IMG/VR virus record: IMGVR_UViG_2529293060_000008
DNA: 49,941 bases
Source: a virus
Taxonomy: Duplodnaviria > Heunggongvirae > Uroviricota > Caudoviricetes
Direction: 5' to 3' (one strand)
Shown: in pieces, positions 3,241-17,484 of the stretch
Layout of the letters: every line of letters begins with the position of its first letter
Numbering within the stretch: the first letter of the stretch is position 1
Notes under the pieces: model-generated
Told to the model about the DNA's origin: nothing
The model's input: the letters and a program-made list of their open reading frames with translations, nothing else
Database searches by the model: none
Translations under genes and position numbers: made by a program

Positions 3241-3483
3241 TCAACCCGCCTCCTTCTGAACATAACGGTTATAAATCAGTCCCTGAGGGCCATAAGGAAG
3301 CGGGATGTGCAACTCCTCTGGTTCAGAAACTATCCATTCCCCGGCCATCTCCGCTGGAGAGGTAATGATAAGTTGTTTGCTAATAAAAGGACCACTCCTC
3401 TCAACAACAAGCTTACCATCTTCATTAATAAAAGCTTGGATGTCAGGTGTGCTTCCACACTTGGTGATGCAGCGTTTGAACAT
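3241..3483 (-). CDS. Hypothetical small protein (lambda ea8.5 position)
   Basis: ORF in the int-proximal accessory region; start chosen at the Met preceded by a GGGGGGA Shine-Dalgarno-like run; identity not recognised. Confidence 0.35.
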   Translation of the reverse strand: MFKRCITKCGSTPDIQAFINEDGKLVVERSGPFISKQLIITSPAEMAGEWIVSEPEELHIPLPYGPQGLIYNRYVQKEAG

Positions 3484-3609
3484 TTTGTGTCCCCCCATTT
3501 TATGGACGGGGTAATTATAACACATTGAAATATAGTAATATTTGACGTAGATTTCTTTTGATCTATAAGCGATTTTTTAATGCTTTTAAGTTATAAATAC
3601 TTGTTTTCA

Positions 3610-4185
3610 TCACCCATCTTGCTGCGGTGCTACTATTGAAAAGTACTCACACCCTTTAGCCCAAATAGTTTTGATAGTTGTCCAACTGACTGGAACCTTG
3701 ATTTCGATTCTTCCGCTGCCGTCACAAGTTTCGCAATCATCATCACCAAAGCATTCCGGGCAGCTTATAAACGTAGTTTCTGAAAATTCACCGGATAGCA
3801 CACCCTTAGCGCCGTTCTCAGCGGTTAGTTTCTTCGGCACTATAACCCAACCATCCGGAGTTACCGGAGAGTTGCCATTTATATCGAAGTTTGGCTCTGC
3901 GTCCTGAACCAGGAGGATGTAACCATTCTTGGCAGTATCAAGTTCTAACGCCTCGGTGACGGTACCGAAATAGCGATTACCTAAATCCGCATCACAAGTG
4001 CTTACATCAATGGAAACCTCCATGCCTTCGATTAATTCTGGCAAGTTGTAAGTTTGGCTTACAGGTTCTGCTCCCAGTGATGCCAGTGCAATTCGTGCCA
4101 GTTCCATTTGTTCGCCACGAGTAAGCCCGTTTTCAAGCGGATTTTTAATGAACAATTCAATACGTTCTTTGGTAATAGTGGTCAT
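3610..4185 (-). CDS. Hypothetical protein with C-terminal CxxC...CxxCxGxG zinc-finger-like motif
   Basis: 191-aa ORF; CPECFGDDDCETCDGSG resembles a DnaJ-type zinc-finger repeat; same strand as neighbouring early-left genes. Confidence 0.5.
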   Translation of the reverse strand: MTTITKERIELFIKNPLENGLTRGEQMELARIALASLGAEPVSQTYNLPELIEGMEVSIDVSTCDADLGNRYFGTVTEALELDTAKNGYILLVQDAEPNFDINGNSPVTPDGWVIVPKKLTAENGAKGVLSGEFSETTFISCPECFGDDDCETCDGSGRIEIKVPVSWTTIKTIWAKGCEYFSIVAPQQDG

Positions 4186-4195
4186 TTGTTAGTCC

Positions 4196-4951
4196 TTAAA
4201 CTGCTAGTTGCAATTGCATTTCAAAGCGGTCGCGTTGTTCACAATACGCAAGAGAACCAGGGCTATTGTGTGCCTCAATCCGTTCTACCATTAATGCTGC
4301 GCGTGTCTCTTTACTTGCAGGTGCATAAGCCCCAGACCAGGCTTTATCAATACCGATGTTTCGAGCGACGTTCGTACTATCTGCGCTGGCTAAGGGTAAT
4401 TTTGTGAATATCAGCGGATTTAACATGCGCAATCCATGTAGTTTCGTAACCGGCTGACCATGCCCATCAACAATGTGACGAATCAGGTCTTTCATTCTGG
4501 CTACCGCAAGAGTTGGGCGCTTTACGTCATAGTCGCCACAACTACCGATAGCCACTCGCGGAAACTCATTGCACAAATGAATAAATCGCTCGTCACTTTC
4601 ATTCATGTGCCACACTGGAACGCCAGCTAGTTTTCCGTGAGGCCACTCATTCAGAAGCGCATCATTTTCCTCCTCTCCGCCATCAATAACATCCGGGATA
4701 ATGGCAAAATCGAATCCTGGGTGATTCTTCCAGCGAGCAACAAAATCGTAGTAATCGCTCCAGTCGATTTTGTTTTTGCCAGCTGCTTTCCAGGCGGTGA
4801 ATGCACCGTTGTCCAGCGCGAACGACTGACAGTATTCAGCCGCGAGATTGATCTGGCCTGAATGCGCAAAACTGATAAACGCATGTCGCCCTTTCCATGC
4901 TCTCATTGCGCACGTATCAGGAGTAATAGGCCCACCGTGGTAGTGAATCAT
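4196..4951 (-). CDS. Hypothetical protein, possible TGT-fold (tRNA-guanine transglycosylase / DpdA-like) enzyme
   Basis: 251 aa from MIHYHGGPITP...; motifs LDNGAF and FDFAIIPDV loosely resemble TGT-family Asp-containing motifs; assignment from memory only. Confidence 0.4.
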   Translation of the reverse strand: MIHYHGGPITPDTCAMRAWKGRHAFISFAHSGQINLAAEYCQSFALDNGAFTAWKAAGKNKIDWSDYYDFVARWKNHPGFDFAIIPDVIDGGEEENDALLNEWPHGKLAGVPVWHMNESDERFIHLCNEFPRVAIGSCGDYDVKRPTLAVARMKDLIRHIVDGHGQPVTKLHGLRMLNPLIFTKLPLASADSTNVARNIGIDKAWSGAYAPASKETRAALMVERIEAHNSPGSLAYCEQRDRFEMQLQLAV

Positions 4952-4952
4952 C

Positions 4953-5360
4953 TCACTCTCCTTTGATGCGAATGCCAGTAGCGCGGATTGCATCGATGAC
5001 TTCAGAAACTTTGTATGCCATTACCGTTTGGTAATCATCGTGAAAATCTGTTCGATGAAGCATGCTGCTACGTTCCGGGAGCAGTATTTCCCGCGCTTCC
5101 AATTCTGCAATGCGCTTTTTTGCTGCTTCCAGTGAATCCAGTAATTCCAGCACGGTAGCCGGATTAGCCTTGGCAACAAAATCCCGGACTGGCTTACAAT
5201 CAATCTCCGCAATGGGTTGATACGATGTGTAGCCATGCTGTCTTGTATAACTACCGTGACGAATAACGAAAAAATCACCATTTATTTTTTTAGCCTGCCA
5301 CTTATCTTCACCGGCTTTCTCTGCCGCTTCACGCAGTGCCTGAGAGTTAATTTCGCTCAC
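4953..5360 (-). CDS. Ead/Ea22-like prophage protein
   Basis: 135 aa with coiled-coil-like ATVLELLDSLEAAKKRIAELEAREILL segment typical of Ea22-like proteins; tight spacing to the downstream gene. Confidence 0.45.
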   Translation of the reverse strand: MSEINSQALREAAEKAGEDKWQAKKINGDFFVIRHGSYTRQHGYTSYQPIAEIDCKPVRDFVAKANPATVLELLDSLEAAKKRIAELEAREILLPERSSMLHRTDFHDDYQTVMAYKVSEVIDAIRATGIRIKGE

Positions 5361-5578: not shown

Positions 5579-5676
5579 CTTTCATTAATCCCTGAATTGT
5601 TGGTTAATACGCTTGAGGGTGAATGCGAATAATAAAAAAGGAGCCTGTAGCTCCCTGATGATTTTGCTTTTCATGT

Positions 5677-8836: not shown

Positions 8837-9349
8837 TTATTTCAAAGAAAAATTATGACTAGCGTATCTTGGAAGAAATTCATATAGTGTTAATGTCTTA
8901 ACGCCGTGAGAAGCAGCAGCATCCGGGATCATTATTCTTTTTTTAGGTTTGCCACCGGATGGTTTCTCATGGGTAATAATAGTATATCCATGTGTCATCG
9001 CATGGGCTATTAAAAAAGCATCTGCTTTTTCATGGCTTGCAAAATCAAACTTTGCCTTTTCGGTAACATCTAATTTAGTTGACCAATTTATTAACTTTGC
9101 ATAATTTTCTATTGAACTATGCTCATCTTCGAAGAATGATGATGGTAACTCTTCTTTAATCCATTTACACAATGGATCATCTTTTGCACATAGTTCTTTT
9201 TTTACAGCATTAATGCTATAAATCAGACCATTAATGTGTAAAGCGAGAAGAAAATCCCAAAATATTTTGCAATAATTGAAGTTATATGCAAAGTTTTTTG
9301 CCTCTATGAAGACATTACTATCAATTAAGAATTTTCCATTATGAATCAT
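8837..9349 (-). CDS. PIN-like nuclease (DUF4411-like), putative toxin or effector
   Basis: 170 aa; N-terminal FLIDSNVFIE and C-terminal DAFLIAHAMTHGYTIITHE resemble PIN-domain motifs; start ATG overlaps the upstream stop (ATGA); visibly AT-rich. Confidence 0.6.
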   Translation of the reverse strand: MIHNGKFLIDSNVFIEAKNFAYNFNYCKIFWDFLLALHINGLIYSINAVKKELCAKDDPLCKWIKEELPSSFFEDEHSSIENYAKLINWSTKLDVTEKAKFDFASHEKADAFLIAHAMTHGYTIITHEKPSGGKPKKRIMIPDAAASHGVKTLTLYEFLPRYASHNFSLK

Positions 9350-10485
9350 AGAGATTCTCGTTTTTTATAAAATTCAACAACTGTATCTGCTTTTACATTT
9401 AGCAGTACGCCTGCTTCCCTTAATGGTAATTGTTGAGACATTGCTTTGGAAATTATTATATTCGTAAGTTTTGGACTGTTACGAACAGGTAATGTGTTAA
9501 AGAAAGAACCACCATTAGATTCTTTTTTGGGCTTATTGTAAGCTTGATCTTTAATTATCTCCAAAGTGTTTCTTTCTATCAAATCTAATTGTAACGCTTT
9601 GATTGCACAAGCGAAATCACTAACCTTAAATAACTTAGAAACCTCTTTTACTCGATAATAATTATTATCGCTGGATGCATTAAGCCAGAAAGATTTGAAG
9701 AGATTATCAGGCATTAAGATTTCAGCAGCAACTTTATTACAAAAAGATTCTATGTTTTTTTCTGTGTCCCACCCAGAGACTCCATCGACTCCAAGCCAAA
9801 GATGAGCCACCTCATGAAATAATGTAAATACCTGCGCAGATAACGCGTCCGAGCTATTTACAAAAATGATCGGAGCAACGCTATCAGATATACAGAAACC
9901 ACGAAACTCTCGCGTGTCAAGTTTTCTTTTATTATTATTACCCACAACACCATTCTTGAAAACTAATACGCCAGTGTCTTCTATTAATTTTGCCACTTTA
10001 GAAAAATAGCTCTCAAAAGTGACATTTTTTATCTCTTTTTGTATATCAAAATGTATTGTGTTTGCTATGTCTGTAGCAACAACCTTATAATTTAATTTTC
10101 TATTAAATTTAAATTTACCAATAAAATCGAGTGGATCATCATTACCATTTTCTCTTAAATAGTCTTTGTACCACTCAAGTTTATATTCTATATCATAGTA
10201 AACATCAAAAAAATCTTTTCCTAACTCACGGCTATTTATAGCTTGCCTTAAGTCAGGGATCTTGGGTTTGGCTGGAGTTGGTGGCGTTTCAAGAAATAAA
10301 AAACCGAAAGGGATTCCTCCAATTTTTGCCAGTTTTTCTGCTGCGGATTTACTTACCACTCCGTTAAGAAATTTATTAATCTTTTTGGGCATGACTTGGT
10401 CAGCAAGAGTTTCGATAGAAACTCCTTGAGAATTTGCTATCCAATCAATCATCTTCCTAGACAATTGAAATTCAACCGCTGCCAT
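9346..10485 (-). CDS. ImmA/IrrE-family Zn-metallopeptidase with N-terminal possible DNA-binding region, putative antitoxin or sensor
   Basis: 379 aa; HExxH in FTLFHEVAHLW followed by ESFCNKVAAEILMP, characteristic of ImmA/IrrE (COG2856) peptidases; AGGTGA Shine-Dalgarno 5 nt before the ATG; AT-rich. Confidence 0.65.
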   Translation of the reverse strand: MAAVEFQLSRKMIDWIANSQGVSIETLADQVMPKKINKFLNGVVSKSAAEKLAKIGGIPFGFLFLETPPTPAKPKIPDLRQAINSRELGKDFFDVYYDIEYKLEWYKDYLRENGNDDPLDFIGKFKFNRKLNYKVVATDIANTIHFDIQKEIKNVTFESYFSKVAKLIEDTGVLVFKNGVVGNNNKRKLDTREFRGFCISDSVAPIIFVNSSDALSAQVFTLFHEVAHLWLGVDGVSGWDTEKNIESFCNKVAAEILMPDNLFKSFWLNASSDNNYYRVKEVSKLFKVSDFACAIKALQLDLIERNTLEIIKDQAYNKPKKESNGGSFFNTLPVRNSPKLTNIIISKAMSQQLPLREAGVLLNVKADTVVEFYKKRESL

Positions 10486-15067: not shown

Positions 15068-16681
15068 TTATTTATTGGTGAGTACTACGTTCCATGGCAG
15101 GAGTTCATCAACTCGGTTGGAAGGCCATTCCGGCAGTACGCTCAGGATATGGCGCAGATACGCTTCCGGATCGATACCGTTCAGACGGCAGGTGCCGATC
15201 AGCCCGTACAACAGTGCTCCACGCTCGCCGCCGTGATCGCTGCCAAAGAACATAAAGTTTTTCTTTCCGAGACAGACTGCACGAAGCGCTCTTTCCGCAG
15301 CATTATTATCCGCCTCCGCCAGACCGTCATCACTGTAATAACAGAGGGCATCCCACTGATTCAGTACATAGCTGAACGCTTCGCCCAGTCTGGATTTTTT
15401 CGACAGCGTACAATTCTTCTCCACCATCCATTCATGCAGCGACGTCAGTAACACTTTGCTTCGCTGCTGCCTGACGGCAAGACGCTCTGACTCCGGTAAT
15501 CCCCGTATTTCATCCTCGATGGCGTACAGTTCACTGATTCGCTTCAGTGCTTCTTCTGCCGTCGCACTTTTGCTGCTGATGTATACATCGTGGATTTTTC
15601 GCCGGGCATGGGCCCAGCACGCAACTTCTGTCAGTGCACCACCTTCACGTTCTGCACTGAACAACCTGTCGTAACCTGTGAACGCATCCGCCTGCAGGAT
15701 ACCCCGGAAGGGGCGGAGGTGTTGCTCCGGGTGTTTCCCCTGCCGGTTCGGCGAGTACGCGAACCAGACCGCTGGAGGAGATGACGAACCCACATTGCGA
15801 TCATCCCGGACATACGTCCAGATACGCCCTGTTTTCGCCTTTTTCTGACCCGGTGCCAGTACCTTTACCGGTGTGTCATCAGTGTGAATCTTGCGGGTGT
15901 TCATTACATAACGGTACAGGGCATCATTCACCGGTGTCATTAACTGGCAGCACGCGTCAACCCAGTTGGAGAGTAAGGCCCGGCTCAGTTCGACACCCTG
16001 GCGGGCAAAGATTTCACTCTGACGATACAGTGGCAGATGTTCGCAGTATTTTCCCGTTAACACGCGGGCAAGTAATCCGGGGCCCGCGATACCACGCTCT
16101 ATCGGGCGGGACGGCGCCGGTGCTTCAACAATACAGTCACATTTTGTACAGGCTTTTTTTACCCGTTCTGTGCGGATCACTTTCAGGGCACTGCTCACCA
16201 GTTCCAGCTGTTCAGCGCTGACTTCCCCCAGATAATCCAGCTCACCGCCACACTCCGGGCAACAGCTTTCTTCTGGCTCCAGGCGGTGTATTTCACGGGG
16301 AAGGTGTGCCGGTAACGGACGACGATGGCGCGACTGTCGCAACTGGCGGGGAACCTGAGGATCGTCTTCCCGCCCACTGTAACGATCGCTGTCCTGTTCA
16401 CGTTGTTTCAGCAGAGCCTCAGCCAGTTCAACTTCACGACGCAGTTTTTCAGAACGGGTACCGAACAGCATCCGGCGCAGTTTTTCTATCTGAGCCCGCA
16501 GATGTTCTATTTCCCGTTCATCTTCTTCGATCTTTTCTTCGGCACGTGTCAGTGCAGAGCGCAGGAAGGCTTCCGTCTCTTCAACCAGACTCAGTTGCTG
16601 GTCTTTCTGACGGAGGGCTTCAGCCTGCTCAGAGAGCAACCTTTCCAGCTCTGCGATGCGAATGAGGTATTTCTGACTCAT
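15068..16681 (-). CDS. tnpC: IS66-family transposase (TnpC)
   Basis: 537 aa with N-terminal coiled coil and Cys-rich segment (CCPECGGEL...CTKCDC), typical of IS66 transposases. Confidence 0.8.
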   Translation of the reverse strand: MSQKYLIRIAELERLLSEQAEALRQKDQQLSLVEETEAFLRSALTRAEEKIEEDEREIEHLRAQIEKLRRMLFGTRSEKLRREVELAEALLKQREQDSDRYSGREDDPQVPRQLRQSRHRRPLPAHLPREIHRLEPEESCCPECGGELDYLGEVSAEQLELVSSALKVIRTERVKKACTKCDCIVEAPAPSRPIERGIAGPGLLARVLTGKYCEHLPLYRQSEIFARQGVELSRALLSNWVDACCQLMTPVNDALYRYVMNTRKIHTDDTPVKVLAPGQKKAKTGRIWTYVRDDRNVGSSSPPAVWFAYSPNRQGKHPEQHLRPFRGILQADAFTGYDRLFSAEREGGALTEVACWAHARRKIHDVYISSKSATAEEALKRISELYAIEDEIRGLPESERLAVRQQRSKVLLTSLHEWMVEKNCTLSKKSRLGEAFSYVLNQWDALCYYSDDGLAEADNNAAERALRAVCLGKKNFMFFGSDHGGERGALLYGLIGTCRLNGIDPEAYLRHILSVLPEWPSNRVDELLPWNVVLTNK

Positions 16682-16711
16682 GACCGTTTTTATAATGCGG
16701 TCAGGAGTTTT

Positions 16712-17062
16712 TTACAACATTGTCAGTGAGTTACGGCTGGATGTTTTTGGCTGACGCCAGTCCAGCTTATCGAGGAGCATTGCCAGTTGCGAGCGGGTAA
16801 TGGATACCTTGCCGTCACGTACCGCAGGCCAGATAAACTGGCCTTCCTCCAGGCGTTTGGTGAACAGGCACAGACCATCAGCATCAGCCCAAAGAATTTT
16901 GACGGTGTCACCCCGTCGGCCACGGAAGATAAACAGGTGACCGGAGAAGGGATTATCATTCAGCACATGTTGTACCTGTTCTCCCAGTCCGTTGAAGGAT
17001 TTACGCATATCGGTAACGCCGGCAACGAGCCAGATACGGGTACCTGATGGGAGTGAGATCAT
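16712..17062 (-). CDS. tnpB: IS66 Orf2 (TnpB)
   Basis: 116-aa ORF, middle gene of the IS66 three-gene unit (MISLPSGTRIWLVAGVTDMRKSFNGL...). Confidence 0.75.
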   Translation of the reverse strand: MISLPSGTRIWLVAGVTDMRKSFNGLGEQVQHVLNDNPFSGHLFIFRGRRGDTVKILWADADGLCLFTKRLEEGQFIWPAVRDGKVSITRSQLAMLLDKLDWRQPKTSSRNSLTML

Positions 17063-17484
17063 CTTCCCCTCCCGGTCAGTTCACGGATCAACACTGTGAG
17101 CAGCTCTGGCGATGGATTTTCCAGCGTCATGTTACCGTGACGGAATTCCACCTTGCAGGAACTGGCACTGACTCTGGTCTGAGTGGAAGTGGATAAAGAC
17201 GGCGCAATGGCCGCCACAGGTTCTTTCTGCTCATCCGGCGTTATTTCTACAGGTAATAATTCAACGCCAGTGTCAGAAGAGGTCGTTACCGGAAGACGCC
17301 GCGAAACACGCCCTTCGTTCTGCCAGAGCCTGAGCCATTTGAAAATAACATTATCATTGACGCCATTTTCACGTGCAATCTGTGCAACACAAGCTCCAGG
17401 TTGTGATGCCAGTTCCACCATACGAAGTTTGAATTCATTCGAATAGTTTTTACGAGGTTCTTTTCGCCAGTCCTGTAATTCCAT
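17059..17484 (-). CDS. tnpA: IS66 Orf1 (TnpA, HTH)
   Basis: 141-aa ORF with HTH-like segment (ACVAQIARENGVNDNVIFKW); first gene of the IS66 unit; ATGA overlap with Orf2. Confidence 0.75.
   Translation of the reverse strand: MELQDWRKEPRKNYSNEFKLRMVELASQPGACVAQIARENGVNDNVIFKWLRLWQNEGRVSRRLPVTTSSDTGVELLPVEITPDEQKEPVAAIAPSLSTSTQTRVSASSCKVEFRHGNMTLENPSPELLTVLIRELTGRGR

Follow-up and report, generated by a model that had tools for sequence, protein, structure and literature searches.

Phage DpdA proteins of the DpdA1 type, such as those of Iggy, CAjan and 9g, are ~306-317 amino acids (aa) long and occur in phages that have their own folE, queD, queE and queC genes (preQ0 or G+ pathway) and in which 16-32% of G is replaced. 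In contrast, the singleton DpdAs of gamma-proteobacterial phages (BTP1, SPN3UB, SfI, HK106, SEN1, SW9, 7-11 and MED16; Supplementary Data 1 of Hutinet 2019 and the 'DpdA/TGT_1' cluster of the MED16 paper) are proteins of ~235-275 aa encoded in genomes without preQ0 genes, and at most 0.13% of G is modified in phages with such a solo DpdA. Here we describe a gene of this second family in a 49,941-nt stretch of viral DNA (IMG/VR record IMGVR_UViG_2529293060_000008; hereafter the window), which is a lambda-type prophage beside ybhC (ybhC side of attB). The gene lies at 4196-4951 on the minus strand. We read its 251-aa product, with a probability of roughly two in three, as a DNA guanine transglycosylase in the tRNA-guanine transglycosylase (TGT) superfamily, namely a minimal phage DpdA that exchanges guanine for host-made 7-deazaguanine in phage DNA.

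The window protein belongs to the same family as the singleton DpdAs and has the same motifs. No essential difference from them was seen, the window copy being located in an E. coli lambda-type prophage, and the BTP1 gene has the same early-left placement after an Ead/Ea22-like gene. With the DpdA1 proteins the window protein has in common PHROG 887, the residues D47, H172 and S189-x-D191-S192, and the lack of a zinc motif or Pfam match, although identity is ~25% and the DpdA1 proteins have extra N- and C-terminal segments and a residue other than Asp at the D87 position. Bacterial DpdA (bDpdA; Salmonella Montevideo, PDB 7UI4) is 13% identical, with no sequence or profile match. It is a 413-aa protein with DpdA-specific insertions and a structural Zn site; it needs the DpdB ATPase and is accompanied by DpdC, which makes dADG (2'-deoxy-7-amido-7-deazaguanosine); none of these is present in the window. 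PADLOC and NCBIfam searches with the window protein gave no match to bDpdA models, and the neighbors are lambdoid early genes rather than dpdB, dpdC or the restriction genes dpdD-K. Cap10 of type IV CBASS (cyclic oligonucleotide-based antiphage signaling system; PDB 9NTN) is 9% identical and acts with the QueC-like Cap9 and a CD-NTase that has a Gly-rich tail at its N-terminus and bears an N-terminal NDG conjugate. Cap10 is a defense-island gene, whereas the window gene is part of a prophage early operon. A search of the window and of the related loci that we fetched turned up no QueC-like gene, PADLOC gave no match, and no CD-NTase was present among the annotated or adjacent genes, although it was not searched for explicitly. 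E. coli Tgt showed no sequence or profile similarity in our tests to the window protein, which is 124 aa shorter, lacks the zinc subdomain, and has DNA rather than tRNA as its predicted substrate.

Gene and family identity

An earlier, sequence-only reading had proposed an open reading frame (ORF) at 4196-4951, left its strand unstated, and quoted the segments SFALDNGAF and GFDFAIIPDV from a 251-aa product. Translation confirmed the ORF on the minus strand, with a product running from MIHYHGGPIT to QLQLAV before a TAA stop and with the two segments at residues 43-51 and 79-88. The coding sequence and its ribosome-binding site are as follows.

4196-4951, minus strand: coding sequence of the 251-aa solo DpdA-like protein, a TGT-superfamily (β/α)8 barrel (from translation)
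4958-4961, minus strand: GGAG, a Shine-Dalgarno sequence that precedes the ATG at 4951 by 6 nt (seen by direct reading of the sequence)

A longer version of the ORF, with 265 aa from an upstream ATG at 4993, is given in the program-made ORF list. The 251-aa form is the correct one, because GGAG lies 6 nt upstream of its ATG, the Ead/Ea22-like gene upstream stops at a TGA (4955-4953) 1 nt ahead of that ATG in an arrangement of translational coupling, homologues begin with MIHYHG at this same start, and RefSeq calls the same 251-aa product (WP_000582228.1, E. coli IAI1, labelled 'hypothetical protein').

The gene is real and under strong purifying selection. Comparison with the BTP1 orthologue gave a pN of 0.042 and a pS of 0.70, the latter near saturation, for a dN/dS of ~0.02, and an intact full-length copy was present in 79 of the 81 fetched loci having a match. 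An identical gene occurs in 204 of 5,426 complete E. coli genomes and also in an Stx1a-converting phage. More than 7,800 homologues were returned by an indexed search, and an exhaustive search of 1.84 billion representatives yielded 805 clusters at 50% identity (E<=1e-3), 144 of these at E<=1e-30. The source names among the top 120 homologues are all 'hypothetical' or 'uncharacterised', and none of the 120 has a Pfam domain.

The sequence-only reading had taken the protein for a possible TGT-family, DpdA-like enzyme, and this is supported by a PHROG match, by homology to a validated DpdA and by shared active-site residues. PHROG 887, 'queuine tRNA-ribosyltransferase', matches the window protein at E=2e-103 and also takes the DpdAs of Iggy (5e-86) and Salmonella phage 7-11 (7e-74), while E. 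coli TGT has no match among the PHROGs at E<=0.01, PHROG 887 included. BLASTP aligned the window protein with Iggy DpdA at 25% identity (E=8e-12) and with the solo DpdAs of MED16 (38%, 1e-43), SEN1 (38%, 8e-51) and 7-11 (36%, 6e-33). Identity by tblastn is 92.8% for the proteins of BTP1 and SPN3UB, both Salmonella phages, and 68% for that of SfI, a Shigella phage. The structure model of the window protein is a (β/α)8 TIM barrel that is closest in structure to TGT-family enzymes.

A profile search against TGT and DpdA models had been suggested as a check, and its outcome was divided. The DpdA half was positive: hhalign of the 84-sequence family profile (A1) with Iggy DpdA gave a probability of 98.7% (E=2e-16, 151 columns). 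The TGT half was negative, since profiles A1 and A4 each reached a probability of <1% with E. coli TGT alone (also with relaxed mact) and with a nine-sequence TGT alignment made from tgt genes taken from 'phage' records. Neither sequence nor profile similarity to canonical TGT (Pfam PF01702) was detected for the window protein or its family. Searches of Pfam, NCBIfam, PADLOC and, by phmmer, PDB sequences with the window protein gave no match, and A1 and A4 found only spurious coiled-coil and KMT5A matches among PDB sequences. Nothing can be read from the blank Pfam, PADLOC and PDB searches, since the validated DpdA of Iggy and 120 listed relatives of it match none of these either. A published HHpred search with the MED16 homologue, which is 38% identical to the window protein, reached 99.18% with T. 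maritima TGT 2ASH_D (MED16 paper).

The window protein thus belongs to the singleton DpdA family catalogued in 2019, and we regard our result as the re-identification of something known. Hutinet et al. 2019 (Supplementary Data 1) list the BTP1 (SIU02687), SPN3UB and SfI proteins by accession as singleton DpdAs, and note that singleton DpdAs cluster separately by host clade, one of these being gamma-proteobacterial, and that their function may have diverged. The PHROGs and several GenBank records already carry a TGT-type name for DpdA-like proteins.

Predicted active site

Alignment of 84 family members identified H5, G6, D47-N48-G49-A50, P86-D87, I89, G91, N96, P112-V113, H115, E118, L126, G136, H172, L174-R175, P186, S189, D191 and S192 as at least 90% conserved. 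In the structure model, nearly all of these are located at or just past the C-terminal end of a strand (β1 or one of β3 to β8), on what is the classical active-site face of a TIM barrel. D47, H172, S189, D191 and S192 are also invariant in a 63-sequence alignment of singleton, 7-11 and DpdA1 proteins, and the window protein has each of the DpdA1 active-site hallmarks, namely the first Asp of D-x-G-x-F, the His of β7 and the Asp of S-x-D-S. The conserved motifs are encoded as follows.

4799-4816, minus strand: codons L46-F51 (LDNGAF), a DSGGF-type motif after β3 with invariant D47 (A1 and A4 alignments)
4679-4702, minus strand: codons I84-G91 (IIPDVIDG), after β4, with D87 99% conserved in the singleton family (family alignment)
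4598-4618, minus strand: codons P112-E118 (PVWHMNE), at the end of β5, with H115 and E118 nearly invariant (alignments)
4535-4549, minus strand: codons I135-G139 (IGSCG), a Gly-rich loop after β6 with G136 96% conserved (alignment)
4427-4444, minus strand: codons K170-R175 (KLHGLR), with invariant H172 on β7 (alignments)
4370-4387, minus strand: codons S189-N194 (SADSTN), with D191 on β8 invariant in singleton and DpdA1 sequences

The conserved D47, D87 and D191 follow β3, β4 and β8 and stand in motifs that resemble those of E. coli TGT, a likeness at the level of motifs. The Asp triad for comparison is D102/D156/D280 in Z. mobilis TGT, equivalent to D95/D130/D256 in bDpdA. D47 is predicted to be the general acid/base and a base-recognition Asp. 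LDNGAF aligns with LDSGAF of Iggy DpdA, E. coli TGT has TDSGGFQ (D89), and F51 stands four residues after D47 like the D95/F99 pair of bDpdA, the roles of which have been described (PMC10164549). D87 is likewise a predicted base-recognition Asp; it is specific to the singleton family, and Iggy DpdA has Ser at that position and Asp three residues later. D191 is the predicted covalent nucleophile, the role held by D256 in bDpdA (PMC10164549). Iggy DpdA has SCDSS in this region, and comparison of SADSTNVARN (D191) with MFDCVMPTRN (D264) of E. coli TGT shows RN 6-7 residues after the Asp in both. The H172-D191 spacing of 19 residues resembles that of the H226/D248 pair of Cap10.

From strand order, H115 is proposed as the counterpart of bDpdA H181 and Cap10 K154. 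The IGSCG loop is a candidate pocket for the 7-substituent, which the Gly-rich β6-α6 loop binds in TGT and bDpdA (PMC10164549). Taken in order along the barrel, the suggested equivalences with bDpdA would be D47 to D95, D87 to D130, H115 to H181, the G136 loop to G206/G207, L174 to L236 and D191 to D256, as judged by strand order and spacing. The structural Zn2+ site (CxCxxC...H) is absent from the family, as CxCxxC was found in 0 of 84 members and no Cys column is conserved. E. coli TGT has the zinc motif CDCYTC. The site is not required for a DNA-acting phage DpdA, since Iggy DpdA also lacks it.

Genomic setting and expression

The minus-strand gene order in the window is int, xis, small accessory genes, the DpdA-like gene, an Ead/Ea22-like gene, a DksA/TraR-like gene, DUF1382, DUF1317, exo, bet, gam and kil. 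The features next to the DpdA-like gene are the following.

4953-5360, minus strand: upstream Ead/Ea22-like gene, translationally coupled (Pfam PF13935, E=2e-16)
3610-4185, minus strand: gene immediately downstream; its 191-aa product has a DnaJ-like CxxCxGxG zinc finger at the C-terminus and belongs to phrog_60 (Pfam gave no match)
5638-5656, minus strand: terminator-like hairpin upstream of the DpdA-like gene within the leftward operon (sequence scan)

A consensus scan found no promoter-like site on the minus strand between 8664 and the DpdA-like gene. Given this, together with the translational coupling and the terminator-like hairpins upstream, we infer that the gene would be expressed by N-antiterminated, delayed-early read-through from pL, which would coincide with replication and recombination. 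The BTP1 transcriptomics paper makes no mention of the BTP1 orthologue, and broad literature searches turned up no work later than 2021 on the function of lambdoid or solo DpdAs.

The fetched family loci included flanks of up to 10 kb per side; the neighborhood statistics cover the close family, that is, relatives at least 67% identical. Throughout this sample the DpdA-like gene is solo. Searches with Iggy QueC, QueD, QueE and FolE by tblastn returned 0 matches (E<=0.01) in the 49.9-kb window and the fetched loci; QueF, ArcS and Gat-QueC were not searched for separately. A conserved partner gene was considered and rejected, as the immediate neighbors are too variable for an obligate partner: they fall into more than 30 clusters per side, the largest of which hold 22-23 of 82 loci and consist mostly of near-identical loci of the window's own type. 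The Ead/Ea22-like gene is the upstream neighbor in just 22 of 82 loci, and the 191-aa zinc-finger gene (RefSeq 'molecular chaperone DnaJ') the downstream neighbor in just 23. The latter is probably not a DpdA partner.

An N6-adenine DNA methyltransferase (Dam PF05869, D12 PF02086 or MT-A70 PF05063) adjoins the DpdA-like gene in ~20 of the 82 loci (e.g. L035, L058, L070 and L028), and a protein combining a ParB-HTH (helix-turn-helix) with a dATP/dGTP pyrophosphohydrolase is the immediate neighbor instead in two related loci. In MED16, a Dam-type methyltransferase (gp32) lies a few genes upstream of dpdA (gp38). We rejected a D12 methyltransferase-DpdA 'fusion' (P0235) as a functional fusion; both of its domains are truncated, and it is probably a deletion chimera that shows adjacency.

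In a single 335-aa ORF on a JGI metagenome contig (Ga0452210_009018, locus L088, 2840-3847), a QueD/PTPS domain (PF01242) is joined with a DpdA-like domain sharing 40% identity with the window protein. This fusion is a Rosetta-stone link between the DpdA clade of the window protein and 7-deazaguanine synthesis. QueC, QueE and FolE were not found in the 11.8 kb available around it, and the 191-aa DnaJ-like neighbor in the window and a gene near the fusion are alike only at the CxxCxGxG motif.

Several other features of the window and of related records were recorded. E. coli IAI1 (NC_011741.1, locus L001, 6560-7680) carries ISSen4, of the IS3 family, between xis and the DpdA-like gene, in an otherwise identical prophage region. 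A 94-aa ORF at 3241-3525 (minus strand; PHROG 9613, unknown function) has orthologues named 'DNA polymerase III subunit theta' (HolE-type) in RefSeq; this theta-like gene and a small ORF are pseudogenised in the IAI1 prophage and intact in the window. An overlapping gene pair at 8837-10485 (minus strand) encodes a DUF4411 protein (170 aa, phrog_11126) together with a 379-aa ImmA/IrrE-type metallopeptidase/HTH protein (phrog_2439). The pair has the kil/gam side on one flank and the repressor on the other, and may be an accessory or defense-like module in the immunity region. At 15068-17484 (minus strand), three ORFs in a row (141, 116 and 537 aa) match transposase PHROGs 1013, 623 and 688 and are laid out in the manner of an IS66-family tnpA/tnpB/tnpC element that has inserted into the rightward early (nin) region. 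Finally, records labelled phage or 'Bacteriophage sp.', including OR844993, OR846599, MT837209 and CAKLQH020000002 (L089-L096) contain a full-length bacterial-type tgt that is 36-68% identical to E. coli Tgt and in one case stands beside yajC, a sign that these 'UNVERIFIED' phage records may include stretches of bacterial chromosome.

Proposed activity and its alternatives

As a DpdA, the protein would be produced once induction or infection has switched on the delayed-early leftward (pL) operon. If it works like TGT and bacterial DpdA, it would flip a guanine out of double-stranded phage DNA, upon which D191 would attack as nucleophile to form a covalent enzyme-deoxyribose intermediate, with D47 as general acid/base. 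A 7-deazaguanine base would then resolve the intermediate by the double-displacement mechanism of TGT. Because the prophage lacks preQ0-synthesis genes, the base would have to come from the host queuosine pathway (FolE/QueD/QueE/QueC), as preQ0 or possibly as the QueC intermediate ADG. There is precedent in 9g DpdA, which inserts dPreQ0 from the host pool into plasmid DNA (0.3% of G) when expressed alone in E. coli. In the solo-DpdA phages 7-11 and MED16, dADG was measured at 50 and 354 per 10^6 nt (0.02% and 0.13% of G), and dPreQ0 is essentially absent. On the strength of these two tested relatives, the outcome in the window phage would probably be sparse modification ending as dADG, at ~0.02-0.13% of G, rather than bulk replacement. 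Two routes to dADG can be envisaged, namely direct insertion of ADG, or insertion of preQ0 followed by hydration.

The sequence-only reading had also linked the gene to evasion of restriction, and this is the weakest link of that reading, because dADG in MED16 conferred no measurable resistance to the restriction enzymes that were tried (MED16 paper). In a rather unlikely alternative, the enzyme is active but has no anti-restriction role, and either places sparse marks (self-mark mimicry, packaging or regulation) or is carried as a nearly neutral passenger of the mosaic early region. The low modification of relatives, the lack of visible protection by dADG, the variable gene neighbors and the presence of the gene in only 204 of the 5,426 complete E. 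coli genomes favor such a role, while a dN/dS of ~0.02 and catalytic residues that are invariant across 805 clusters at 50% identity argue against the passenger version. This alternative concerns biological role and is compatible with the proposed DpdA chemistry. It is distinctly unlikely that the protein is instead a TGT-fold transglycosylase that takes 7-deazaguanine on a carrier other than the free base, or that has an acceptor other than DNA, as would a Cap10-like enzyme acting on deazaguanylated protein or an anti-defense enzyme intercepting the chemistry of type IV CBASS or of Dpd-type systems.

A tRNA-guanine transglycosylase that changes how host or phage tRNA is modified in the lytic cycle is suggested by common ancestry with TGT and by the PHROG and GenBank product names, 'queuine tRNA-ribosyltransferase', but the name is inherited from remote TGT similarity. 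We consider this very unlikely, as the protein, at 251 aa, falls short of the 375 aa of E. coli TGT and lacks the CxCxxC...H zinc subdomain and the C-terminal region, E. coli TGT falls outside PHROG 887, the validated members of which have DNA as their substrate, and a tgt gene is already present in the host. The chance that we are dealing with an unrelated TIM-barrel enzyme (an aldolase, glycosidase or similar), with a resemblance to TGT at the level of fold only, is close to negligible in view of the significant homology to validated Iggy DpdA, the shared invariant D/H/D residues and the published HHpred match of the MED16 protein to T. maritima TGT; Pfam is equally blank for validated DpdA1 proteins. 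We retain the minimal phage DpdA as the preferred reading.

A more speculative view of the whole group would deny the solo DpdAs of temperate enterobacterial phages a role as bulk anti-restriction enzymes and see them either as sparse, sequence-specific writers of dADG, through direct ADG insertion or an unknown hydratase, or as Cap10-like enzymes that act on a non-DNA deazaguanine conjugate. We consider this doubtful. If it were true, their function would be distinct from that shown for DpdA1, and sparse dADG marks could mimic the low-density dADG/dPreQ0 'self' mark of Dpd systems or serve as a phage-internal signal.

Our analysis exposes a gap in annotation: the protein is 'hypothetical' in RefSeq in 204 complete E. 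coli genomes, though a name can be given to it with good confidence, and the entire phage DpdA family escapes Pfam, NCBIfam and PADLOC. No current concept is changed. The remaining interest lies in the biology of solo DpdAs, for which a copy in an inducible lambda-type E. coli prophage is a convenient test system, with host que genes, restriction systems and recombineering at hand.
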